Assembly (NCBI GenBank): GCA_965242575.1
Contig: OZ251461.1
Location: forward strand, 1,505,430 to 1,569,429
Direction of reading: 5' to 3'
From: Alphaproteobacteria bacterium
Lineage (GTDB): Bacteria > Pseudomonadota > Alphaproteobacteria > UBA7887
Length of the DNA stretch: 64,000 nt
In this document: positions 3,757 through 61,012 of the stretch, in pieces
How the letters are laid out: each line of letters opens with the position of its first letter
Position numbering within the stretch: the stretch's first letter is position 1
Program-made: the position numbers and the translations under genes
The notes under the pieces: model-generated
The model's input: the letters and a program-made list of their open reading frames with translations, nothing else
The model's database searches: none
What the model was told of the DNA's origin: nothing

Positions 3757-6700
3757 CCGCCCGCCCGGACTTCATCGACAACCGCGGCGGCAACACGCTG
3801 GCGCGGGCGCTCGACGCGGCGCTCGGCGGCGCGGACGGGGGCGCGGCGGAAGGGGGCGGACCGGACGCGGTGCGCATCGCCACCGCGTTCTTCAACCCCG
3901 CCGGCTTCGCCCGGATCGCCGACCGGCTGGCCGGCGCGCGCGAGGTGCGGTTGCTGCTCGGCGCCGACCCGGCGCTCGCGGCGGCGGACGCGCGGCGGCG
4001 GCTGGACGAAACGCCGGAGGCGTTCGAACGGCGGCGCATGGCGGCGGGCCTGCGCCGCATGGAGGCGGCGCTGCGCCGCGAACGCGACGGCCTGCCGTTC
4101 GACCGGGCGAGCGGCGCCGCGCTGCGCAAGCTGGCCGCGGCCTTGCGCGCCGGCAATATGGAGGCGCGCCGCTACGAAAAGGCGTTCATGCACGCCAAGG
4201 CCTATGTCGTGACAGCGGAGGGCGGGACCTACGGCCGGCCCGAGGGCGTGATCGCCGGGTCGTCCAACCTGACCGACTCGGGGCTGACCCGCAACCTGGA
4301 GCTCAATCTGGGCCGCTACGACCGCCCGGTGGCGGAGCGGGCGCGGCGCTGGTTCGACGAACTCTGGGACGAGGCCGAACCTTGCGACCTCGCCGCGCTG
4401 TTCGAGGATTCGCTGCGGCTTTACACCCCGTGGGAGATTTTCCTTCGCGTGCTCTGGCGGCTCTACGGGGACGAGGCCGCGGCGGACGCGGCGGAGGACG
4501 ACGACCTGCCGCTGACCAGCTTCCAGAAGCACGGCGCGGCGCGGGCGCTGCGGCTGATCCGCGACACGGGCGGCGCGGTGGTCGCCGACGAAGTGGGGCT
4601 CGGCAAGACCTTCATCGCCGGCGAGATCATCCGGCTTTACCGCGAGCGGCGGCAGCGCGCGCTGCTGATCTGCCCGGCGGCGCTGCGCGACACCGTCTGG
4701 CGGCAATTCATCGCCCGGTTCCAGCTGTTCGTAGAATGCCTGTCGTTCGAGGAACTGGCGAACGACCCCCGGCTGGGCGGCGCGGGCGGGGAGAAGCTCG
4801 CGCGGCCGCTCGACGAATACCAGCTCGTCGTGGTGGACGAGGCCCACAACTACCGCAACCCCGGCGCGCCGACCCGCGCGGGGGCGCTGCGGCGGCTCCT
4901 GCGCGGGCCGCGGCGCGATCTTCTTCTTCTCACCGCCACGCCGGTCAACAACTCGCTGTGGGACCTTTACCACCTGCTGCGGTTCTTCCTCCGCCAGGAC
5001 GCGCATTTCGCCGACCGGGGCATACTCTCGATCCGCGGGCTGTTCGAAAGGGCGGCGCGGGAGGATCCCGCAAGCCTCGGTCCCGACACGCTGTTTCCGA
5101 TCGTCGACGCGACGACGGTGAAGCGGACGCGGCAGTTCGTGAAGAAGCATTACGCCGGCGACACGATCCCCGGCCCCGACGGCGCGCCGCTGCCCATCGA
5201 GTTCCCCCGGCCGCAAGCGATCGGCCTGCGTTACAATCTGGACGACCGCCTGCCGGGCTTTTTCGACCGGCTGGAGCGGGCGCTCGACCCCGACGGCGGC
5301 GAGGCCGCCGCCTTCGCGCGCTACACTCCGGAGGTTTGGCGCCGCGGCGGCGCCGACGAGGAGGAGGAGGCGCGCGCCCGGGCGACGGCGGGGCTGCTGC
5401 GCTCCGGCCTCCTCAAGCGCTTCGAGTCGTCGGCTTTCGCCTTCCGCCGGACGGCGGAAAAGATGACGCGCGAGCACGACGCGTTTCTCGCCGCGCTCGA
5501 CGCCGGCCACGTGGTCTCCACCGCGTTCATGAGGGAGCTGTCCGCCGACGACGAGGGGGCGTTCGAGGACGTCCTCGGCGCCACGGAGCACAAGGCGGAT
5601 GCGGCGCTCTACGACGTCGCGGGGCTGCGCGCGGCGGTCGCGCGCGACCGCGGGATTCTCGCCGCGCTCGCGGAGGAGGCCGGGAAGATCGCGCCGGACC
5701 GGGACCCGAAGCTCGAGGCGCTCGCCGGCGCGCTGGCCGGGATCGCGGAGCAGGCCGAACACGAGGCCGCGGACCCGGTCGACGAGGCGCAGAAGCGCAA
5801 GGTCCTGGTGTTCTCGTTCTTCGAGGACACGATAGCGTGGATCCGCGACTATCTCGCCGGGGCGCTGGAGACGCGGCCGGAGCTCGCCGCATATCGCGGC
5901 CGCATGGCGGCGGTCAGCGGTTCGGGCGAGCTCGACGACGTCTCGCGGCAAAAGGCGCTGTGCGGGTTCGCGCCCATGTCGATGGCGGAGCGGACCGAGC
6001 GCGCCGCCGGCGATTACGACATTCTGCTGTCGACGGACGTTCTGGCGGAAGGGGTGAACCTTCAGGATTGCCGGCACATCGTCAATTTCGACATGCCGTG
6101 GAACCCGATGCGGCTGGTGCAGCGGCACGGGCGGATCGACCGCATCGGCGGCCCGCACCGCCGCGTGTTCCTGCGGACGATCTTCCCCGCCGACCGGCTC
6201 GACCGCCTGCTCGATCTCGAACGGCGGATTCTCGACAAGTTGGCGCTGGCGGCGGCGAGCGTCGGCGTGGCGCCGCCGATCCCCGGCGCGGCGCGCGGCG
6301 GGCAGGTGTTCGCCGAAACCCGCGCCGAGATCGAGAAACTGATCGCGGAGGACTCCGCGCTCTTCGAACGCGGCGGCGCGGCCGGCGCCGCGCAGACCGG
6401 CGAGGAATACCGCCAGACGCTGCGCAAGGCGCTCGCCGACGGCGGCGGGCGCATCGCCAACCTGCCGTGGAAGATCGGTTCGGGAATGGTCCGGGGCGCA
6501 CGGCGCGGCGTGTTCTTCTGCGCCGCGGTGGGGCGGGACAGCGACCTGGAGCGCAACTACCTCCGCTTCGTCGACGCCGGCGACGACTGGCGCCCCGCGG
6601 CCGGCGACGGCGCGGTCGAGCGCGAGCGCGGCGCCTGCCTGCGCCTGATCGAATGCGCGGAGGACACTCCGACCCGACTCCCGGACATATTGCGGGATCG

Positions 6701-39074: not shown

Positions 39075-39284
39075 CTCCGGCGGGACAAGGCCCGTCGCCG
39101 TTAAGAGGCCGTTTTAGAATATACTATTGAAATTATTCGATTTCTGATCGGTATGGCTGCATGCTTCACACACATGCCAATGGACTCCCGCAATCTTGGG
39201 AGTTACGATCCGTTTGCCGACGCGGATACCGTGCAGACAGGATGCGGGGACAATACACTGAAAGTAATCGATTCATTCTGAAAC

Positions 39285-39916
39285 GGCCTCGTAGAGGCTC
39301 CGGGCGTCGTGCGCGCTGGCGGCGAGCGAGGCGATGACGAAGCGCGGGTTGGCCTTGCCGTGGGGCCATTCCGCCTTGCCGACGACGCGGCGCTCGCGGC
39401 TCCGACTGTCGCGCGTGGACCGCACGAAGTCCGCGAAGCGCCGCGCCGGCGCGGCGCTTCGCGCGCTGTCCGCTTGGCCTCCGCCAACACATCCGCAATC
39501 GCCGACCCGTCATGGACGATCTTGCCGTCCCCGGACGGAGACGAACCGCCCAACTCCAACCGGCTCGGCGTCGACTTCCCCGCAACCGGGGCGCAGTTCC
39601 GGCGCTTCGCGCGCAACTTCCCCGCCAACACCGCCATCACCGGACCGCCGCGCAACACGTCGTGGTTGATCGAATCCTCGTAGCCCAGCGCAATCCCCAA
39701 CACACGCCGACCCACAAGCGTCCGAACCGAGTGCTCCACGAACCGGCCATCGCGATGATCCGCGAAGCAAGCCGCAAGCCCAACCGCCGCGTCCGCCTGT
39801 CCGAGCAGCAGAGCGCCGGCGTCCGAAGTCATCGACCCGCCGTCGAAATCCGCCACAACCGCCCGCCCCGAAACCGCTTGAAAGTCACCAGGCGCCGCGC
39901 TACACTCCATTCGCAT
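39285..39916 (-). pseudogene. IS1380-family transposase remnant (frameshifted, internally deleted, 3'-truncated)
   Basis: The N-terminus ...VVADFDGGSMTSDAGALLLGQ...GRFVEHSVRTLVGRRVLGIALGYEDSINHD is IS1380-like. A later segment FADFVRSTRDSRSRERRVVGKAEWPHGKANPRFVIASL...SLYEAV sits in another frame, and similarity ends near 39290. Confidence 0.7.
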
Positions 39917-40010: not shown

Positions 40011-41189
40011 AGTGTCCTGCGTCTGAAGTTAGTATCATAACGGGCAGTGATCGCCGATTCGGGGAGGGTAAGCGATGGGGCGTTGTGTCGGTCGGCCCGT
40101 GGCGGCCGTGGTGTTGAGCGCCGCAGAGCGGTCGTTCCTTGAGCGTCAGGTTCGCCGTCGCCGGGTGGCGCGGGGGATGTCGGATCGCTGCCGCATCGTC
40201 CTGCGCTGCGCCGATGGCTTGACGAGCAAGGCGGTGGCGGCGGAACTCGGCGTGCACGAACACACCGTCGGCAAGTGGCGTCGTCGTTTTCTGCAGGATC
40301 GTGTCGAGGGCCTGTCGGACGCGCCGCGTTCGGGGCGCCCGCGGAGCATAGAAGATGCGCGGGTGGCCGAGGTCGTCAAGCGGACGCTCGAGACGTCGCC
40401 CCCCGACGCGACGCATTGGTCGATCCGCTCGATGGCCCGGGAGGCGGGGCTTTCGCACACGACGGTGCGGCGGATCTGGAAGGCGTTCGGGCTGCAACCG
40501 CACCGGTCGGAGGCGTTCAAGCTTTCCAGCGATCCGCTGTTCGTGGATAAGGTGCGGGACATCGTGGGGCTCTATCTGTCGCCGCCGGACCGCGCGCTGG
40601 TGCTCTGCGTCGATGAGAAGAGCCAGGGACAAGCCCTTGACCGCGAGCAGCCGGTCTTGCCGACGATGCCGGGCATGCCCGAACGGCGGACGCACAACTA
40701 TGTCCGGCACGGGACGACGTCGCTGTTCGCCGCGCTCGACGCCGCAACGGGCTTCGTCATCGGCAAGTGCTATAGACGCCACCGGGCGCGGGAGTTCCTC
40801 GATTTCCTCAAGGAGATCGACGCTCGTGTTCCCGAAGACCTGGACGTTCATATCGTCATGGACAACTACACGACCCACAAGACCGCTTCGGTCAAGGCAT
40901 GGCTGGCGCGACGGCCACGCTATCACGCTCACTTCACGCCGACCTCGGCCTCGTGGATCAATCAGGTGGAGCGCTGGTTCGCCGAACTGACGCGCAAGCA
41001 GCTTCAACGGGGCGTGCACACCTCCACGAAACAGCTCGAGGCGGATATCCGCGCCTTCATCGACCGGCACAACCAGAATCCCAAGCCCTTCAAATGGACC
41101 AAAACCGCCGACGATATCCTCGCACCCGTCAAACGCTTCTGTCACCGCGTCGACCGCACATTATGCAGCGAACTTTAGACTCAGGACAC
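40011..41189 (+). mobile_element. IS630-family insertion sequence, apparently intact
   Basis: 20-bp terminal inverted repeats (40011-40030 GTGTCCTGCGTCTGAAGTTA versus the reverse complement of 41170-41189) agree at 18 of the first 19 positions; position 20 also differs. TA dinucleotides flank both ends (40009-40010 and 41190-41191). Confidence 0.9.
40075..41178 (+). CDS. IS630-family DDE transposase
   Basis: HTH region ...[23 protein letters not shown]... and DDE region LCVDEKSQ...[11 protein letters not shown]...[19 protein letters not shown]. Confidence 0.9.
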
Positions 41190-55262: not shown

Positions 55263-56453
55263 ATGACGACGACGCGCGAAGCGGGGCGGCCCGACCGCCG
55301 CCGCGTCCTGGCGGGGATGGCCGCCGCCTCCGCCGCCGGGCTGCTTCCGGCGCCGGCGCTGGCGCGGGGCGGCGGGCTCCGCATCGGCGCGCTGCTGCCG
55401 CTCACCGGCGGGCTCGACGCCCATGCGGCGCAGATGCGCCTCGGCCTGGAGTCCGCCGTCGACGCGCTCAACGGCGCCGGCGGCGTCCTGGGCCGCCCGG
55501 TCGAGGTCGTTTACGCCGACAGCGCCGGGACTCCCATGGGCCTGGCGGAGACCTGCGACCGCCTCGTTCGCGAGGACGGGGTGGCGGCCGCGGTGGGGCC
55601 GTTCATCTCCGCCGGGCGCAAGACCGCCGCCCGCGCCCTTGCGGCGCACGGCGTCCCGCTGGTCACGGCGGCGAACACCGAGGGGATGTTCCGCGCCGCC
55701 AACTACTTCTCGGTCGGGCCGACCCCGAACCAGGACATTTTCGCGCTGGTCCGCCGCCTCGACGGCGGCGAGGGGCGCTCCTACTTCCTCGTCGGCTCCT
55801 ACACGAGCTGGCAGGTGTCCAGCTTCCGCCAGGCGATCCTCAAGGTCATCTACCGCTTCGAGGGGTCGGTGGAGGGCCAGGCGCTGACCCCGGTGGGCGA
55901 GGAGTCGTTCCAGGCGGTGGCGCGCTGGATCGCCGACACCGGCGCCGACACGGTGGTGTTCTGCGCGCCGCGGCTCCACGGCGCGCATTTCGTCCGCCAG
56001 GCGCGCGCCATCGGCCTGCTCGCCCGCATCCGCCTGGGCTGGGTGGGGTTCAACGAACTCCACGCCGGCGCGCTGCCGCCCGGCGAGGCGGCGCAGGTGT
56101 CCACCGTCTCGCCCTTCGTCGCCTCCGACCGCCGGGGCGGCGTCCCCGACCTGGTCGCGCGCATGGAGCGCATCGGCGGAGCCGCCGTTCCGCCCACCTA
56201 TTACGCCTACACGCACCACAACGCGCTGCTGGCGGTGGCCGCCGCCGCCGAGGCGTCCGGCGAGGCCTCCGCCCCGGCCGTTCTCGCCAGCCTTCCCGGC
56301 CTGGAGTTCGCGGGCGCCACCGGCCCGGTGGCGATCGACGCCGAGAACGGCCATGCGCGTTTCGCCGTCATGGCCGCGCGCGGCCGCGCCGGCGGCCTGG
56401 AGGTGGAGGAGCGCCTGGGCCTCATCGACCCGGAGCCGGGCGGGGCGGGGTGA
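55263..56453 (+). CDS. ABC-transporter periplasmic binding protein, LivK/AmiC (Peripla_BP_6)-like
   Basis: Tat-like signal RRRVLAGMAAASAAGLL, then LRIGALLPLTGGLDAHAAQMRLGLESAVDALNGAGGVLGRPVEVVYADS. Confidence 0.8.
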   Translation: MTTTREAGRPDRRRVLAGMAAASAAGLLPAPALARGGGLRIGALLPLTGGLDAHAAQMRLGLESAVDALNGAGGVLGRPVEVVYADSAGTPMGLAETCDRLVREDGVAAAVGPFISAGRKTAARALAAHGVPLVTAANTEGMFRAANYFSVGPTPNQDIFALVRRLDGGEGRSYFLVGSYTSWQVSSFRQAILKVIYRFEGSVEGQALTPVGEESFQAVARWIADTGADTVVFCAPRLHGAHFVRQARAIGLLARIRLGWVGFNELHAGALPPGEAAQVSTVSPFVASDRRGGVPDLVARMERIGGAAVPPTYYAYTHHNALLAVAAAAEASGEASAPAVLASLPGLEFAGATGPVAIDAENGHARFAVMAARGRAGGLEVEERLGLIDPEPGGAG

Positions 56454-56754
56454 CGGGTATCGGCCGTCGGTTCCGAGGGCCGCGCCCGCGGCTCCGGCGA
56501 TTCTCGTTACCGACGGAGCGCGGCCCGGTCCGCCTTCGCCCGGGACCGCCGGCGTCTCGCCGACGATTTCCGCTTCGGATGTCGCTTGCGCGGGCCGGCG
56601 AGACGCCGGCGGCCCCGGGGATGCGAGCCGCTGTGGAGCGGCGAGGTTCCCCCTGATGGGAATCGCGGCCGTCCGGGGCGGCGCGTTGCCGCCGGCGCCG
56701 GGCCGCGCTATCGTTGCGCGCCGTGGCGTGGACGAATCGTGGAAGGGGGGAGCG

Positions 56755-58338
56755 ATGGCGGGGATGCGCGTTGTGGCGGCGGCGTGCGCCGTTCTGGCGG
56801 CGGCGCCGGCGGCGGGGCAGGGGGACTGCGGCGATCTCGGAGACTGCCTCCGCCCCCTCGCGGATAAGGTGGCGAATCTTCTGAGCCGCGAGGCGCAGGA
56901 TCGCGGCGAGCGGCTGGAGGTGAGTTTCCGCCCCGCGCGGACCGAGCCTTCGGGGGTGGACATTTATTGCCGGGCGTTGTCGCTGGGCCTGCGCAACGCG
57001 CTGCACGAGGGCGTGCAGGAGGAGCGCCGCGACGCCGGCATGAATTTCGAGCTGCTGACCCCCGATTTCATGCGGGTGGAGCCGCCGGAAGTGCTGATGG
57101 TCTGGACTCCGGACCGGACGGGCGGCGGGGTCGAGATACTCGACGTCGAGGTCACCGTCGTGTTGGCGGACCGCGGGGAGCGTGCTCACTCGGGCAAGGT
57201 TCCCATGTCGGCGCTGAGCCGGGCGGAGCGCGGGTGCCTGTTTTCGTTCCGGTCGCAAGCGGCCCGGATCGCGGCCCCGGAGGCGGGGGAACTGTACTCC
57301 GAGCCGAGCTACCGCGCCGACGCCTTTGAGGCGGATTACGAGAAGGGCGACACGCTGCGCATGCTGGGCTGCGCGACGGCCGCCGGCGGCGTCTGGCCGG
57401 TGGTGAGGTGGCGGAACCCGGACACCCGCGAACGCCGCGACCTGTTCGCCCCGGATTTGGTGGACAAGTGCGGGCCGGTCGTCATCGTCGACGACGAAGA
57501 CGACAGGGCGTTCGAGTCGGCGCGTCGCGCGAACACGGTCGCGGCGTTCGACGGGTATTTGTCGTCGTTTCCGTCGGGCCGCCACGTGGCGGAGGCGCAG
57601 CGTTTGCGCGACGAACTGAAGGATCCGCCCCCGCCGCCCGGGACCGTCATCCACGACTGCGATCATTGCCCGGAGATGGTGGTGGTCCCGGCGGGGCGTT
57701 TCGAGATGGGGTCTCCCCCGTCGGAGTCGGGACGCGACGGCGACGAGGGTCCGCAGCATGAGGTGGCGTTCGATTCTCCGTTCGCGGTGGGCGTGTACGA
57801 GGTTACGTTCGACGAGTGGGATGCGTGCGTTTCGAACGGGGGGTGCGGCGGCTACCGCCCGGCCGACCAGGGCTGGGGCCGTGGCGGGCGGCCGGTCATC
57901 AACGTGAGTTGGGACGATGCGCAAGCCTATGCGTCGTGGCTGTCCCGTGAGACGGGGGAGGAGTACCGCCTGTTGAGCGAGGCGGAGTGGGAGTACGTGG
58001 CCCGTGCGGGGACGGTGACGCGCTATTGGTGGGGCGACGGCATCGGCGCGAACCGCGCGAACTGCTCCGGCGATGGTTGCGGGGAGGGCTATGCGAACAC
58101 GGCCCCTGTGGGCAGTTTCGGCGCGAACCCGTTCGGTTTGCACGACGTCCACGGCAACGTTTGGGAATGGGTGGAGGACTGCTGGCACGAGAACTACGCG
58201 CGCGCTCCGTCGAACGGCGATGCGTGGCTCGGCGGTCAGGGCGGCGATTGTTCCCGTCGCGTTCTCCGCGGCGGGTCCTGGTACAACCCTCCCAAGAACC
58301 TCCGCACGGCGCTCCGCGACAGGTACGACACCGGCTAG
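56755..58338 (+). CDS. DGR target protein: secreted protein with C-terminal FGE-sulfatase/C-type-lectin-fold domain carrying the variable region; currently ends at an in-VR TAG
   Basis: Signal peptide MAGMRVVAAACAVLAAAPAAG. FGE domain CPEMVVVPAGRFEMGS...NVSWDDAQAY..WLS...YRLLSEAEWEY..R...HGNVWEWVEDCW...RVLRGGSW. The 3' end is the VR. Confidence 0.9.
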   Translation: MAGMRVVAAACAVLAAAPAAGQGDCGDLGDCLRPLADKVANLLSREAQDRGERLEVSFRPARTEPSGVDIYCRALSLGLRNALHEGVQEERRDAGMNFELLTPDFMRVEPPEVLMVWTPDRTGGGVEILDVEVTVVLADRGERAHSGKVPMSALSRAERGCLFSFRSQAARIAAPEAGELYSEPSYRADAFEADYEKGDTLRMLGCATAAGGVWPVVRWRNPDTRERRDLFAPDLVDKCGPVVIVDDEDDRAFESARRANTVAAFDGYLSSFPSGRHVAEAQRLRDELKDPPPPPGTVIHDCDHCPEMVVVPAGRFEMGSPPSESGRDGDEGPQHEVAFDSPFAVGVYEVTFDEWDACVSNGGCGGYRPADQGWGRGGRPVINVSWDDAQAYASWLSRETGEEYRLLSEAEWEYVARAGTVTRYWWGDGIGANRANCSGDGCGEGYANTAPVGSFGANPFGLHDVHGNVWEWVEDCWHENYARAPSNGDAWLGGQGGDCSRRVLRGGSWYNPPKNLRTALRDRYDTG

Positions 58339-58386
58339 CGGGACCTCGACTTCGGCTTTCGTTTGCTCCGTTCGGTCCGGACGTTC
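58254..58386 (+). repeat. DGR variable region (VR) plus IMH-like 3' segment
   Basis: Colinear with TR 59947-60079 at a constant offset of 1693. There are 16 mismatches and every one is at a TR adenine. The segment 58354-58379 is identical in both copies and contains no adenine. Confidence 0.95.
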
Positions 58387-58427
58387 ACCCCTTAAATCTT
58401 TACCTCCTTACCTCTTCACAGGGGGGT

Positions 58428-58460
58428 CCGGGGGGCTTGCCCCCCGGCCGGAATTTTTTT
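58428..58460 (+). terminator. GC hairpin with 4-nt loop plus T7 run downstream of VR (terminator and/or DGR target-recognition hairpin)
   Basis: ccgggggg-cttg-ccccccgg, then ccggaa and ttttttt. Confidence 0.75.
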
Positions 58461-58481
58461 CGGGGCTCCGCATGACCGGGC

Positions 58482-58871
58482 ATGGGTGACGGGCGCGCCG
58501 GGGCCGGCGGGCAGGCGGGGGCGAGGGAGACGGGGCCGGCGCTGGAGGCGCATTACCGCTTCCTGCTCTGGCTCGTCCCGGCCGTGGACGGCTTCCCGCG
58601 CCGCCAGAAGTTCCTGCTCGGCGACCGCATCCAGACCACCGCCCTCGACGTGCTCGAATCGCTCGTCGAGGCGACCTACACCCGCCAGCGCGGCGCGCAT
58701 CTCGGCCGCGCCAACCTGGGGGTGGAAAAATTGCGCCTCCTCTTCCGCCTCGCCCACGACCTGCGCTATCTCGACTCGCGGCGCTACGAGCACGCGGCGC
58801 GCAGCCTCGACGACACCGGACGGCGCATCGGCGCCTGGAGAAAGGCGCACCATGCCCGCGAAGGCGCATGA
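58482..58871 (+). CDS. avd: DGR accessory variability determinant (Avd, four-helix-bundle / S23-IVS family)
   Basis: LEAHYRFLLWLVPAVDGFPRRQKFLLGDRIQTTALDVLESLVEATY...LRLLFRLAHDLRYL. It lies immediately upstream of, and overlaps, the RT gene. Confidence 0.85.
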   Translation: MGDGRAGAGGQAGARETGPALEAHYRFLLWLVPAVDGFPRRQKFLLGDRIQTTALDVLESLVEATYTRQRGAHLGRANLGVEKLRLLFRLAHDLRYLDSRRYEHAARSLDDTGRRIGAWRKAHHAREGA

Positions 58872-60126
58872 CCTGTTCGGCGCCATCGCGTCGTTTCCCG
58901 CCCTGCGCGCCGCCGCCTTGCGCGCCGCGGCGGGCAAGCGCGCGAAGCCGGGGCCGGCGGCCTTCCTCGCCGGCCTCGAGACCGAGGTCCTGCGCCTGGA
59001 GCGCGAACTGGCGAGCGGGCGCTACCGGCCGGGGTGCTACGCGACCATCGAGGTCTTCGACCCGAAGCACCGCGTCGTCTCCGCCGCGCCGTTCCGCGAC
59101 CGCGTCGTCCACCATGCGCTGTGCGCCGTCGTCGAGCCGATCTTCGAGCGCGGATTCATCCACGACAGCTACGCCAACCGCGCGGGCAAGGGGACGCACC
59201 GCGCCATCGCGCGCTACGAACGCTTCCGCGACCGCTTCCGCCATGTCCTGCGGTGCGACGTATGGCGGTATTTTCCCGCCATCGACCACGAGATCCTCAA
59301 GCGCGGCCTGCGCCGGCGCATCGCCTGCCCGCGCACGCTGGCGCTCGCCGACCGCATCGTCGACGGCTCCAACCGGCAGGAGCCGGTCCTGCTGCATTAT
59401 CCGGGCGACGACCTGTTCACGCCGCAGCGCCGCCGGCGCGGGCTGCCGATCGGCAACCTCACCAGCCAGTTCTTTTCCAACCTGTATCTCGACGGCCTCG
59501 ACCACTTCTGCAAGGAGGTCCTGCGCGCGAAGGGCTACCTGCGCTACGTGGACGACTTCGCGCTGTTCGACGACGACCCGGCGCGGCTGGAGGACTGGCG
59601 GCGGCGGATCGGCCGCTTCCTCGAAGGCCGCCGCCTGCGCCTGCATCCGCGCAAGACCGGCATCGCCGAGACCCGCGCGCCGGCGGAATTCCTCGGCTTC
59701 GTGCTGGCGCCCGGCGGGCGGCGGCGCCTGCCGGAGGCGAACGTCCGCCGCTTCCGCGGCCGGCTGCGCGGCCTGCGCGACCGCTGGCGCGCCGGAACCG
59801 CGGACCGCGGCGAGATCGAACGCCGGGTGGGCGCATGGATCGCCCATGCCGAGCATGCCGACACCTGGCGCCTGCGCCAGGCGATCTTCCGGGGCGGGTG
59901 GTTCGACCCGTCGAACCCCCGGCCCGGGGGCCTGCCCGTCCCCCTGCCGTCGCGTTCTCCGCGGCGGGTCCTGGAACAACCAACCCAAGAACCTCCGCAC
60001 GGCGAACCGCAACAGGAACGACACCGGAAAACGGAACAACAACAACGGCTTTCGTTTGCTCCGTTCGGTCCGCACGCTCCGCTGCCGGAACCGCCGGCCT
60101 CAAGGGGCCGGCGGGCGCGCCGGTGA
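58852..60126 (+). CDS. DGR reverse transcriptase (3' end of the ORF reads through the TR)
   Basis: RT motifs SAAPFRDRVVHHAL, SYANRAGKGTH, LRCDVWRYFPAIDH, GLPIGNLTSQFFSNLYL (the DGR-typical xxxSQ) and YLRYVDDFALF. Confidence 0.9.
   Translation: MPAKAHDLFGAIASFPALRAAALRAAAGKRAKPGPAAFLAGLETEVLRLERELASGRYRPGCYATIEVFDPKHRVVSAAPFRDRVVHHALCAVVEPIFERGFIHDSYANRAGKGTHRAIARYERFRDRFRHVLRCDVWRYFPAIDHEILKRGLRRRIACPRTLALADRIVDGSNRQEPVLLHYPGDDLFTPQRRRRGLPIGNLTSQFFSNLYLDGLDHFCKEVLRAKGYLRYVDDFALFDDDPARLEDWRRRIGRFLEGRRLRLHPRKTGIAETRAPAEFLGFVLAPGGRRRLPEANVRRFRGRLRGLRDRWRAGTADRGEIERRVGAWIAHAEHADTWRLRQAIFRGGWFDPSNPRPGGLPVPLPSRSPRRVLEQPTQEPPHGEPQQERHRKTEQQQRLSFAPFGPHAPLPEPPASRGRRARR
59947..60079 (+). repeat. DGR template region (TR) plus IMH*-like 3' segment
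   Basis: It contains 32 adenines, mostly in AAC codons when read in the VR frame (translation VLRGGSWNNQPKNLRTANRNRNDTGKRNNNNGFRLLRSVRT). Confidence 0.95.
60091..60114 (+). other. Perfect 9-bp hairpin just 3' of the TR (candidate DGR RNA structural element)
   Basis: ccgccggcc-tcaagg-ggccggcgg. Confidence 0.5.
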
Positions 60127-60235
60127 GCGTCCAGGGACGGTCATGACGAGCGAAGGCCCGGCGCCCCGCTTGCCCCGCCGCCGCGCGGGGGCGGGGCGCC
60201 GGGCGATTCGCGGCGGCGCCCGAACGCCGCGCCGC

Positions 60236-61012
60236 CTACATCGCGGTGATGCCGCCGTCGACGACGAACTCGGCGCCGGTCATGTATCTCGACTCGTTCG
60301 AGGCGAGATAGACGACGGCCCAGGCGATGTCGTCGGGCGCGCCGAGGCGGCCCAGGGGCACCTGCCGCTCCAGCTTCGCCTTCACGGCGGCGGGGTTCGG
60401 CGCGTGGTCGATCATCGCGCGCACCATCGGCGTGTCGATGAAGGTCGGATGCACCGAATTGCAACGGATGTCGTAGCCCTTGCGGGCGCAATGCAGCGCC
60501 ACCGATTTGGTGAGCAGGCGCACCGCCCCCTTGCTGGCGTTGTAGGCGGCGAGGTTGTGGCCGCCGATGATCCCCGACACCGACGAGAGGTTGACGATCG
60601 AACCGCCCGCGCCGTCCTCGCGCGAGGTCCGCTTGATCGCCTCCACCCCGTATTTGCACCCCAGGAACACGCCGTCGGCGTTCACCGCCATAACCCGCCG
60701 CCAGTCCTCGAGCGAGGTCTCCTCGACCGTCCCCATCGTTCCGACCCCGGCCGAATTGACCACGACGTCGAGGCGCCCGAAGCGCTCCAGCGTCCGGGCG
60801 GTCGCGCGCTTCCACGCCGCCTCGTCGGTCACGTCGTGTTCGACGAAGACGACGCCGCCGCCGATCGCCGCCGCCGCGGCCCGGCCGCCCTCGGCGTTCA
60901 CGTCGGTTATCGCCACCCGCGCGCCTTCCCCGGCCATGCGCTCGGCGGAGCGCCGGCCGATGCCCGAGGCGCCGCCGGTGACCAGCGCGACCTTGCCCTT
61001 CAGCCGATCCAT
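60236..61012 (-). CDS. SDR-family oxidoreductase
   Basis: KVALVTGGASGIGR, NSAG and YNASKGAV (catalytic YxxxK). Confidence 0.9.
   Translation of the reverse strand: MDRLKGKVALVTGGASGIGRRSAERMAGEGARVAITDVNAEGGRAAAAAIGGGVVFVEHDVTDEAAWKRATARTLERFGRLDVVVNSAGVGTMGTVEETSLEDWRRVMAVNADGVFLGCKYGVEAIKRTSREDGAGGSIVNLSSVSGIIGGHNLAAYNASKGAVRLLTKSVALHCARKGYDIRCNSVHPTFIDTPMVRAMIDHAPNPAAVKAKLERQVPLGRLGAPDDIAWAVVYLASNESRYMTGAEFVVDGGITAM

Follow-up and report, generated by a model that had tools for sequence, protein, structure and literature searches.

The window, by which we mean the whole 64-kb stretch of DNA that was analyzed, carries a target gene, avd, an RT gene and a TR belonging to a diversity-generating retroelement (DGR). 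The order target-avd-RT-TR on one strand, as given in the original prediction, was confirmed by the ORF list and the repeat positions. It matches architecture B2, in which avd is followed by RT and then by TR on one strand, an arrangement described as a subtype of Avd-dependent DGRs (Wu et al. 2018, PMC5758913). The locus is a genuine DGR of a common, already described type. A gene for a periplasmic binding protein precedes the cassette and one for an SDR follows it; the ORF list contained no other ORF inside it and no HRDC, MSL or CH1 accessory gene. The genes, repeats and associated features are as follows.

56755-58338 (+): target gene as currently read, 527 aa, cut off by a premature TAG (ORF list; Pfam FGE-sulfatase)
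56755-57654 (+): target N-terminus, a hydrophobic leader and a rare ~240-aa domain without known function, outside the shared DGR module
57667-58395 (+): FGE-sulfatase/C-type-lectin-fold domain carrying the VR, running to the original stop (Pfam, aa 305-522; PDB sequence matches)
58254-58386 (+): VR, with diversified part 58254-58379 and an IMH-like, A-free 3' part at ~58353-58386 (direct repeat comparison)
58336-58338 (+): premature stop TAG, A>T plus A>G opposite TR codon AAA (60029-60031)
58393-58395 (+): original target stop TAA (translation; stop position kept in relatives)
58398-58460 (+): conserved region 3' of the VR, consisting of a pyrimidine repeat, a GC hairpin and a T run
58482-58871 (+): avd, 129 aa, with a 20-nt overlap with the RT start (Pfam bAvd)
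58852-60126 (+): RT ORF, 424 aa, conserved core ending near 59920, last ~70 codons reading incidentally through the TR and RNA elements (Pfam RVT_1; 8ub7)
59947-60079 (+): TR, AAC-rich in the target frame, with AAG and AAA stop-capable codons and a lineage-specific 9-nt insertion

The same layout was found in ~49 related loci, with the TR 20 to 40 nt past the RT core. The B2 DGRs of Wu et al. 2018, including cyanobacterial ones, share the order, FGE-family targets, avd and a TR ~20 nt after RT, and the DGR on plasmid pn2 of Nostoc sp. UHCC 0926 has the same layout and an RT 52% identical to that of the window. Among plasmids of cultured organisms, cyanobacterial RTs were the closest (50 to 53% identity). 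The window clade is nevertheless distinct from the Nostoc and B2 DGRs, being very large, GC-rich and known from metagenomes only; it includes 2233 proteins at an E value of <1e-100, with 65 to 88% identity across MAGs from many phyla. Viral contigs and phage genomes yielded no close relatives, identities staying below 42%.

The protein assignments of the original prediction agreed with the database searches. The target matched Pfam FGE-sulfatase (8e-51, profile positions 2 to 238 of 255 only) and, in the PDB, PvdO (5hha, 2e-55) and the Treponema variable protein TvpA (2y3c, 1.5e-12). In TvpA of Treponema denticola and other FGE-fold DGR variable proteins, the variable residues likewise lie in the C-terminal part of an FGE-like C-lectin fold; the difference from TvpA is in the N-terminal part, where the window has its rare domain without a confident structural match. 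The leader is plausibly a signal peptide. The N-terminal domain had only 9 homologs among 5.8e9 proteins, partnered by an FGE domain, PG_binding_1 or nothing, and no DNA similarity to the relatives' loci was detected upstream of ~57650. For its AF2 model (pLDDT 72.6), no full-length PDB fold match was found, the sole structural match being an SH3b-like subdomain of ~70 aa with weak E values. Avd was confirmed by Pfam (bAvd, 7e-16); a PDB sequence search gave no match, so this identification is by Pfam only. Its 20-nt overlap with RT is also present in one of the related loci (L081). The RT matched Pfam RVT_1 (2e-14) and has the catalytic motifs YVDDF and IGNLTSQ, which aligned with YMDDI and IGSLTSQ, respectively, in its best PDB match, the BPP-1 bRT (8ub7, 9e-39, residues 7 to 341, aligned end to end).

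Direct comparison of VR 58254-58379 with TR 59947-60072 upheld their predicted colinearity over 126 nt at an offset of 1693. Over this length the TR comprises 32 A, 45 C, 32 G and 17 T, and, as originally reported, all 16 mismatches (8 A>T, 4 A>C, 4 A>G) fall within the 32 adenines, with none at the 94 non-A positions. The repeat itself reaches 58386/60079 (133 nt in total). Past an identical A-free stretch at ~58353-58379, the repeats differ at two non-A positions at the far end, 58380 and 58384, and 58386 is the last position of homology; judged from the sequence, this is the pattern of IMH versus IMH* at the 3' ends of the VR and TR. Both strands of the 64 kb were free of further TR copies. 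Ordinary copies of an FGE C-terminus, related by paralogy or gene conversion and A-biased by coincidence, might be imagined since FGE-sulfatase genes are often multicopy in such genomes, but they are already refuted by these mismatch counts and have practically no chance of being the explanation, given a P value of 8.4e-12 for all 16 mismatches hitting adenines by chance, a TR copy outside any FGE gene, and the recurrence of the A-restricted pattern in at least 60 VR/TR pairs of relatives (1003 of 1803 TR adenines changed).

The window VR shares the 9-nt insertion of the window TR, which is missing from 43/43 aligned relatives and from the 97%-identical sister strain (L080). Homing was therefore recent, and the shared insertion together with the lack of non-A drift is indirect evidence of present-day DGR activity. 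If the window is a consensus assembly, as it may be, a heterogeneous VR would be displayed as one haplotype or as a mixture.

The original prediction also placed the TR within a 3' extension of the RT ORF. The ORF indeed continues to 60126 and spans the TR in a different frame; what did not stand is that the extension is functional or unusual. The RT ORF covers the TR in 43/49 relatives, many of which end at a conserved TCATGA (tail ...SVQGRS*), and database RT lengths cluster at 416 to 428 aa, as would be expected if the TR were truly coding, either because, together with the downstream RNA region, it encodes a functional C-terminal extension of the RT or because its translation regulates the template RNA. 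However, the phase of the RT tail is not conserved: three reading phases over the TR occur among the relatives, in three loci the ORF ends at the TR start or ahead of it, and a 1-nt indel relative to the 97%-identical strain alters the entire tail. In the stretch from TR to P1 (see below), the three frames are open in 39, 30 and 27 of 44 loci, all frames usually being open because T makes up only 11%. In the Nostoc DGR the RT ORF stops before the TR, which is annotated there as a separate hypothetical protein, and bRT has nothing corresponding to the window RT tail. The conserved downstream sequence, moreover, covaries as RNA. A coding role is thus very improbable, and on these comparisons the TR lies inside the RT ORF as a by-product of composition.

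Nor does the element end at 60126, as had been predicted, since its conserved structured RNA extends to 60202; DNA similarity to the relatives stops at ~60203. The RNA elements around the TR are as follows.

59886-59930 (+): P0, a covarying RNA hairpin within the last RT codons (RNAalifold and pair counts)
59933-59942 (+): P1 5' strand, 5 to 14 nt upstream of the TR, pairing with 60134-60143
60091-60114 (+): P2, a tetraloop stem-loop of 9 to 10 bp, 12 nt past the TR
60125-60130 (+): P3 3' strand GAGCGU, part of the conserved motif GAGCGTCCAGGG; its partner is the TR 3' end at 60074-60079
60134-60143 (+): P1 3' strand, within the conserved motif CAGGGNCGGTCATGA
60158-60202 (+): P4, a long two-part hairpin marking where the conserved module ends on its 3' side

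RNAalifold independently recovered helices P0 to P4. In the MAFFT alignment, 93.3% of cells pair and 42/55 pairs show compensatory changes; the covariation score was 0.377, compared with 0.163 in shuffles (0/500 of which reached 0.377) and 0.07 to 0.10 in slid registers. The 10-bp P1 duplex has 97.5% of cells paired and compensatory changes in 6 pairs; such changes occur in 9/10 pairs of P2, and covariation in P4 extends to 12/12 outer and 5/6 inner pairs. In the 6-bp P3, 98% of cells are paired, with compensatory changes in 2 to 3 of the 6 pairs and two pairs that never vary. All of these helices are intact in the window.

By analogy with BPP-1, functions may be suggested for three of the helices. 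P1 resembles the BPP-1 cPRT Stop duplex and may stop cDNA synthesis. P2 resembles the Avd-binding stem-loop and may bind Avd; 9-bp tetraloop stem-loops just downstream of the TR were described by Handa et al. P3 would be a TR:Sp-like primer duplex for cis-priming, its 3' strand lying 46 to 51 nt past the TR end (47 to 56 for the BPP-1 Sp); the paired Sp-like nucleotide adjoining the template is U, whereas in BPP-1 it is A. The duplex bracketing the TR, the tetraloop stem-loop after it and the downstream pairing of the TR 3' end are at positions matching those of the prototype, BPP-1 (mtd-avd-TR-brt), which also shares the adenine-specific TR-to-VR transfer, the Avd/RT pair, a C-lectin-fold target whose gene carries the VR at its 3' end, repeat ends that differ in the manner of the IMH, and a GC hairpin downstream of the VR. 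In BPP-1, however, the TR lies between avd and RT, and since it follows RT in the window, the upstream RNA elements are located in the 3' coding end of RT, not in avd. BPP-1 is also phage borne, in contrast to the chromosomal window DGR, and its target is Mtd instead of an FGE-sulfatase-type scaffold.

Downstream of the VR, a pyrimidine repeat (CTTTACCTC CTTACCTC, 58398-58414) precedes a GC hairpin at 58428-58447, folded as an 8-bp stem with a 4-nt loop (CTTG, which is not GRNA), and a run of seven T at 58454-58460. The same layout follows the VR in most of the 35 relatives shown, with covariation in the stem (CCGGGGGG / CCAGGGGG / CCAAGGGG). According to Guo et al. 2011, post-VR stems are 7 to 10 bp with 4-nt loops and lie 4 to 34 bp after the VR. 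The window hairpin is ~41 nt from the homology end, outside that range, compared with 4 nt after the VR in BPP-1. It is a candidate target-recognition hairpin/cruciform, terminator or both. Because of the T run and the distance it may be only a terminator; a terminator scan did not call it. Any role in homing is suggested by analogy.

A point overlooked in the original prediction is that the stop codon of the target ORF, TAG at 58336-58338, sits within the VR. The VR makes up the last 47 codons of the original target frame, which without this TAG would extend to TAA at 58393-58395, and the gene as it stands is short of its final 18 codons (...GFRLLRSVRTFTP). Homologs that share its N-terminal domain terminate in ...GFRVARTFTP, as does the window frame if read through the TAG. 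On the pattern of its substitutions, the TAG is a nonsense allele made by the DGR's own adenine mutagenesis. The missing residues include the conserved GFR strand, and the truncated protein is therefore probably nonfunctional. The DGR is accordingly "complete," as originally described, with respect to its components but not with respect to an intact target. This self-made stop codon in the target VR is the sole unusual feature of the DGR. Since the TR, IMH, avd and RT are intact, another round of homing can restore the target protein.

L080 and most of the 43 aligned relatives carry AAC at the TR codon in question, AAA being found elsewhere only in three loci (L015, L022 and L047), which indicates that the AAA of the window is a derived C>A change. 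This bears on whether the AAA and AAG codons act as an adaptive on/off switch, with the DGR doubling as a phase-variation device and the window showing the OFF state. Such a state would be reversible in principle; at family-wide rates, ~1 in 5 homing events from the window TR would yield a nonsense allele, and 28/58 related TRs hold at least one stop-capable codon. Against this, and in addition to the derived origin of the AAA, no stop was found at 37 instances of stop-capable codons in the relatives, where ~4 were expected (P = 0.013), indicating that nonsense alleles are selected against. We therefore consider a switch improbable.

It could also be that the nonsense allele is fixed and the target is heading towards a pseudogene. 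A decaying or recently inactivated DGR, with its target pseudogenized by the in-VR stop and the cassette out of use, would account for the truncated target and for the frameshift of the RT tail relative to L080. That frameshift is confined to the nonconserved tail, however, and the avd and RT ORFs are intact, catalytic motifs included. The absence of non-A differences between VR and TR, the copying of the TR-specific insertion into the VR and the integrity of every RNA helix likewise speak against decay, which we regard as unlikely.

The preferred reading, to which we assign a probability of roughly 0.88, is that of a chromosomal B2 DGR with BPP-1-like RNA folding and homing, whose last homing event(s) made the TAG and whose target is restorable. 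It builds on the components, the A-specific pattern, the RNA covariation and the signs of recent homing observed in this analysis. In this model, the operon target-avd-RT-TR would be transcribed, and the RNA from the last RT codons to ~60202 would fold into its elements: the duplex 59933-59942:60134-60143 would bracket the TR, the tetraloop stem-loop 60091-60114 would form just past it, and the TR 3' end (60074-60079) would pair with GAGCGU (60125-60130). By analogy with BPP-1, an RT-Avd complex would bind the folded RNA and prime cDNA in cis near the TR 3' end, copying the TR with misincorporation opposite adenines until synthesis halts at the bracketing duplex. The cDNA would then replace VR 58254-58379 in the gene for a secreted FGE/C-lectin-fold protein, aided by the IMH and possibly the downstream GC hairpin. 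In the last such event(s), TR codon AAA would have become TAG in the VR, producing the present allele without the last 18 residues.

More tentatively, the ~2.55-kb unit from 57650, inside the target ORF, to 60202, at the P4 hairpin, might form a portable module, transferred among at least eight bacterial phyla and grafted in frame onto unrelated N-terminal domains, in the window onto the rare secreted domain with its nine known homologs, although we find this rather doubtful. The unit comprises the FGE domain with the VR, avd, RT, the TR and the structured RNA. Many of its carriers bear sponge-symbiont lineage names, and no mobility gene was found within it.

The window DGR leaves the understanding of DGR function unchanged. 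It is one more well-documented member of a clade of cellular DGRs that is very large and uncultured, and it provides a covariation-supported RNA model, covered by no Rfam family, for DGRs in which the TR follows RT. For annotation, the lessons are that RT gene calls in GC-rich genomes take in both the TR and the RNA downstream of it and that a target seeming to end early may merely hold a nonsense VR allele. The locus is also a natural case of the known hazard of adenine mutagenesis, in which one C>A change in the TR (AAC to AAA) lets a DGR silence its own target.

The DNA at 56755-60126 had originally been predicted to hold a complete diversity-generating retroelement (DGR) with its template repeat (TR) embedded in the open reading frame of the reverse transcriptase (RT). 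The genes and repeats concerned are as follows.

56755-58338, plus strand, target gene
58254-58379, variable repeat (VR)
58482-58871, plus strand, avd
58852-60126, plus strand, RT gene
59947-60072, TR

Base-by-base comparison showed that the VR and TR are colinear over 126 nt at an offset of 1693, confirming every predicted number. The TR comprises 32 A, 45 C, 32 G and 17 T, and the VR differs from it at 16 positions, all of them TR adenines (8 to T, 4 to C and 4 to G), a distribution with a probability of 8.4e-12 by chance. The adenine-only substitution of the original prediction (16/32 A) was thereby upheld, and substitution at a comparable rate was not seen at the other positions (0/94). 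The repeat finder gave a longer pair of 133 nt (58254-58386 and 59947-60079), the last 7 nt of which contain two non-adenine differences, at 58380 and 58384, as would be expected of an IMH at the 3' end of the VR and an IMH* at the 3' end of the TR. No further TR matches or additional VRs were found on either strand within the 64 kb.

Pfam agreed with the predicted identity of the three proteins, assigning FGE-sulfatase to residues 305-522 of the target (8e-51), bAvd to the 129-aa protein (7e-16) and RVT_1 to the RT (2e-14). The top RT match among PDB sequences was bRT, the RT of the prototype Bordetella phage DGR BPP-1 (8ub7, 9e-39), with residues 7-341 aligned to 7-315 of the 328-residue bRT; the predicted YVDDF and IGNLTSQ motifs were both present, opposite YMDDI and IGSLTSQ, respectively. 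The FGE domain was closest to PvdO among PDB sequences (2e-55) and matched the Treponema DGR variable protein TvpA at 1.5e-12, and Avd had no match among PDB sequences. Searches for identical sequences returned no record of either the window RT or its Avd. The end of avd overlaps the start of the RT gene by 20 nt, as in the relatives.

The flanking genes are ordinary chromosomal ones, encoding a periplasmic binding protein, DctP, an SDR, an alpha/beta hydrolase and an amidohydrolase; no phage genes adjoin the DGR, and a tRNA scan returned zero tRNA genes. The upstream binding-protein gene is separated from the target by a stretch with a 24-nt inverted repeat (56539-56619, 96% complementary, 33-nt spacer), possibly a terminator or REP-like element. 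Elsewhere in the window, an IS630-type transposase gene (DDE_3 and HTH domains; 40075-41178, plus strand) adjoins a DDE_Tnp_1_4 transposase fragment (39203-39916, minus strand), and IS630-like DNA also lies a few kilobases from the DGRs of two related loci, L007 and L034.

A scan for relatives of the RT (58852-59920), with one genome per species, yielded 79 loci (L001-L079; 65-88% RT identity) from MAGs of at least 8 phyla, each of which was searched for adenine-restricted repeats. In about 49 loci the TR begins 20-40 nt past the conserved end of the RT (…IFRGGWFDP) and the VR lies about 1.65 kb upstream. This clade therefore has the predicted order target-avd-RT-TR as its norm, which Wu et al. 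(PMC5758913) list in their survey as architecture B2. The RT ORF does cover the TR, to 60126, as predicted, and the ORFs of 43 of the 49 relatives do likewise, but this could not be sustained as a special trait. Most loci read the tail in the phase PGTTNRGTS…SVQGRS*, five in the target phase (VLRGGSWNN) and three, including the window, in the phase LEQPTQE; in three loci the RT stops before or at the TR start. The stretch from the TR to RNA helix P1 contains only 11% T, and of 44 loci, 39 are open in one frame, 30 in another and 27 in the third. Since the phases differ, T is scarce and the frames are mostly open, the ORF overlap is a by-product of composition; it is incidental, and coding across the TR is not conserved. 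A conserved protein-coding RT tail was rejected on the same variable phase and often open frames and on the sister strain (L080), where a 1-nt linker indel alters the entire tail. The DGR on plasmid pn2 of Nostoc sp. UHCC 0926 (RT 52% identical) has the same gene order but, unlike the window, its RT ends before the TR. RefSeq labels the TR and downstream RNA region of that DGR (4913-5191 of the plasmid locus, L082) a "hypothetical protein", which parallels the RT read-through in the window as an artefact of annotation.

The alignment of the window with 43 relatives showed strong sequence conservation 3' of the TR, including GAGCGTCCAGGG and TCATGA. Unguided RNAalifold predicted five helices.

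Predicted RNA helices around the TR (RNAalifold; all plus strand)
P0, 59886-59930, hairpin within the last RT codons
P1, 59933-59942 with 60134-60143, 10-bp duplex, its 5' strand just upstream of the TR
P3, 60074-60079 with 60125-60130, 6-bp duplex involving the TR 3' end
P2, 60091-60114, 9-10 bp stem with a tetraloop
P4, 60158-60202, long two-part hairpin

In the MAFFT alignment, 93.3% of cells were paired and 42 of 55 pairs in these helices had compensatory changes, giving a covariation score of 0.377 versus 0.163 for shuffles (0 of 500 shuffles reached 0.377). When the registers were slid by 1-3 columns, 45-49% of cells paired and the score was 0.07-0.10. RNAalifold helices internal to the TR had zero compensatory changes and were set aside. 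The element was thus found not to end at 60126, as originally proposed, but to continue as conserved structured RNA to 60202. In BPP-1, Handa et al. described a cPRT Stop duplex of sequences up- and downstream of the TR, an Avd-binding 9-bp tetraloop stem-loop right after the TR, and a template:primer duplex (TR117-129:Sp47-56). In kind and position, P1 and P2 are counterparts of the first two and P3 is a candidate counterpart of the third, with an Sp-like strand 46-51 nt past the TR end compared with Sp47-56 in BPP-1, and by analogy we infer similar functional roles for them. Of the two non-adenine VR/TR differences, one (TR position 60077) falls within P3 and the other (60073) at the neighbouring base, which would fit cDNA synthesis beginning just 5' of the duplex. 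Rfam gave no match for the region at E <= 1 or for the whole window at gathering thresholds, so no curated family includes these RNA elements.

At the DNA level, the relatives' loci resemble the window from about 57650 to about 60203, i.e., from the start of the FGE domain, inside the target ORF, to the end of P4. The N-terminal 300 target residues are not common to these loci, and the shared stretch is thus a module of about 2.55 kb, with lineage-specific N-terminal domains fused to it. Pfam found nothing in the target besides FGE-sulfatase. Only nine homologs of its N-terminal domain were found in 5.8e9 proteins, either standing alone or joined to an FGE domain or PG_binding_1. The AlphaFold model of this domain (pLDDT 72.6) had no full-length Foldseek match in the PDB; a roughly 70-residue sub-domain resembled SH3b cell-wall-binding domains with weak E-values, and this predicted likeness is treated as a lead.

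The window DGR is a member of a large uncultured clade, with 2,233 RT proteins at E < 1e-100. RTs 70-88% identical occur in MAGs of Alpha- and Gammaproteobacteria, Gemmatimonadota, Acidobacteriota, Chloroflexota, Nitrospirota, Latescibacterota, Binatia and Thermodesulfobacteriota, and many carriers bear sponge-symbiont lineage names (Palauibacter, Poriferihabitans, Multivorans, Binatia, Latescibacteria); a search of the literature library found no paper on DGRs in sponge symbionts. This cross-phylum distribution points to horizontal spread of the DGR cassette, already a stated property of DGRs (Wu et al., PMC5758913). A phage origin was rejected, as no relative was found in viral contigs and phage genomes contained only RTs below 42% identity. 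Some genomes carry 2-3 DGR copies (L001/L002; L007/L010/L011; L031/L032; L042/L043). Seven loci (L005, L008, L027, L032, L044, L048 and L066) have two or three VRs in separate FGE-domain genes less than 6 kb from the RT, with three each in L005, L008 and L044, compared with the single VR within the 64-kb window. On the P0011 contig (L081, RT 87% identical), the target combines Peptidase_C14 (caspase-like), PG_binding_1 and FGE-sulfatase, and the cassette is flanked by a second such target gene and two Transposase_31 genes.

In most of the 35 relatives shown, the sequence downstream of the VR has a common layout of stop codon, pyrimidine repeat and GC hairpin, and the hairpin stems covary. In the window, CTTTACCTC occurs twice (58398-58414) and the hairpin (58428-58447) has an 8-bp stem, the loop CTTG and then seven T. 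In BPP-1, homing requires a similar hairpin/cruciform; its stem has 7-10 bp, its loop 4 nt, and its distance from the VR is 4-34 bp (Guo et al. 2011), compared with about 41 nt here. The window hairpin could also be read as a terminator; a promoter/terminator scan of 56300-60400 called none, the hairpin failing the tool's requirement on T-run spacing.

The window TR carries a 9-nt insertion (60050-60068; GFRLLRSVRT versus GFRVART in relatives, three residues added) that is missing from all 43 aligned relatives and from L080, and the VR has the same insertion (58357-58375). L080 is 97% identical to the window at the nucleotide level with the same downstream flank, and this nearest contig is 1,644 nt long, without the VR. 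Because transfer is from TR to VR, homing must have taken place at least once after the TR gained the insertion. The shared insertion, the lack of non-adenine drift, and the fact that avd, the RT and the RNA helices are all intact count against a dead element; the locus is a genuine DGR with recent activity, and its architecture and target class are known ones.

Although all components of the predicted complete DGR were present, the target is not intact: its ORF ends at a TAG (58336-58338) that lies within the VR, opposite the TR sense codon AAA (60029-60031), and had been overlooked. Beyond the TAG the target frame continues with RDLDFGFRLLRSVRTFTP to a TAA at 58393-58395. This TAG is premature, because ...GFRVARTFTP is the C-terminus of three of the four homologs in which this rare N-terminal domain is joined to an FGE domain, and because the Pfam match ends at profile position 238 of 255. 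It deletes the conserved GFR strand, and the target has been truncated by the DGR's own mutagenesis. The TR codon is AAC in L080 and most of the 43 aligned relatives, and AAA only in L015, L022 and L047; therefore, a C>A change in the TR made the codon stop-capable. Among the relatives, 1,003 of 1,803 TR adenines were changed (T 487, G 418, C 98), and at these rates about 4 stops were expected at the 37 instances of stop-capable TR codons (AAA, AAG or AGA); 0 were seen (P = 0.013). The window is the sole case in the clade of a mutagenesis-made VR stop, which together with this deficit indicates that nonsense alleles arise and are then purged. The only other VR with such a stop, also in frame and opposite a TR AAA codon, belongs to a distant DGR with a different target type (L077, 652-747).

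The window VR is thus a rare, probably non-functional allele, which another homing event could reverse. Two points of this locus are noteworthy: the covariation-supported RNA elements of a DGR in which the TR follows the RT, and a nonsense VR allele that goes back to one mutation in the TR.
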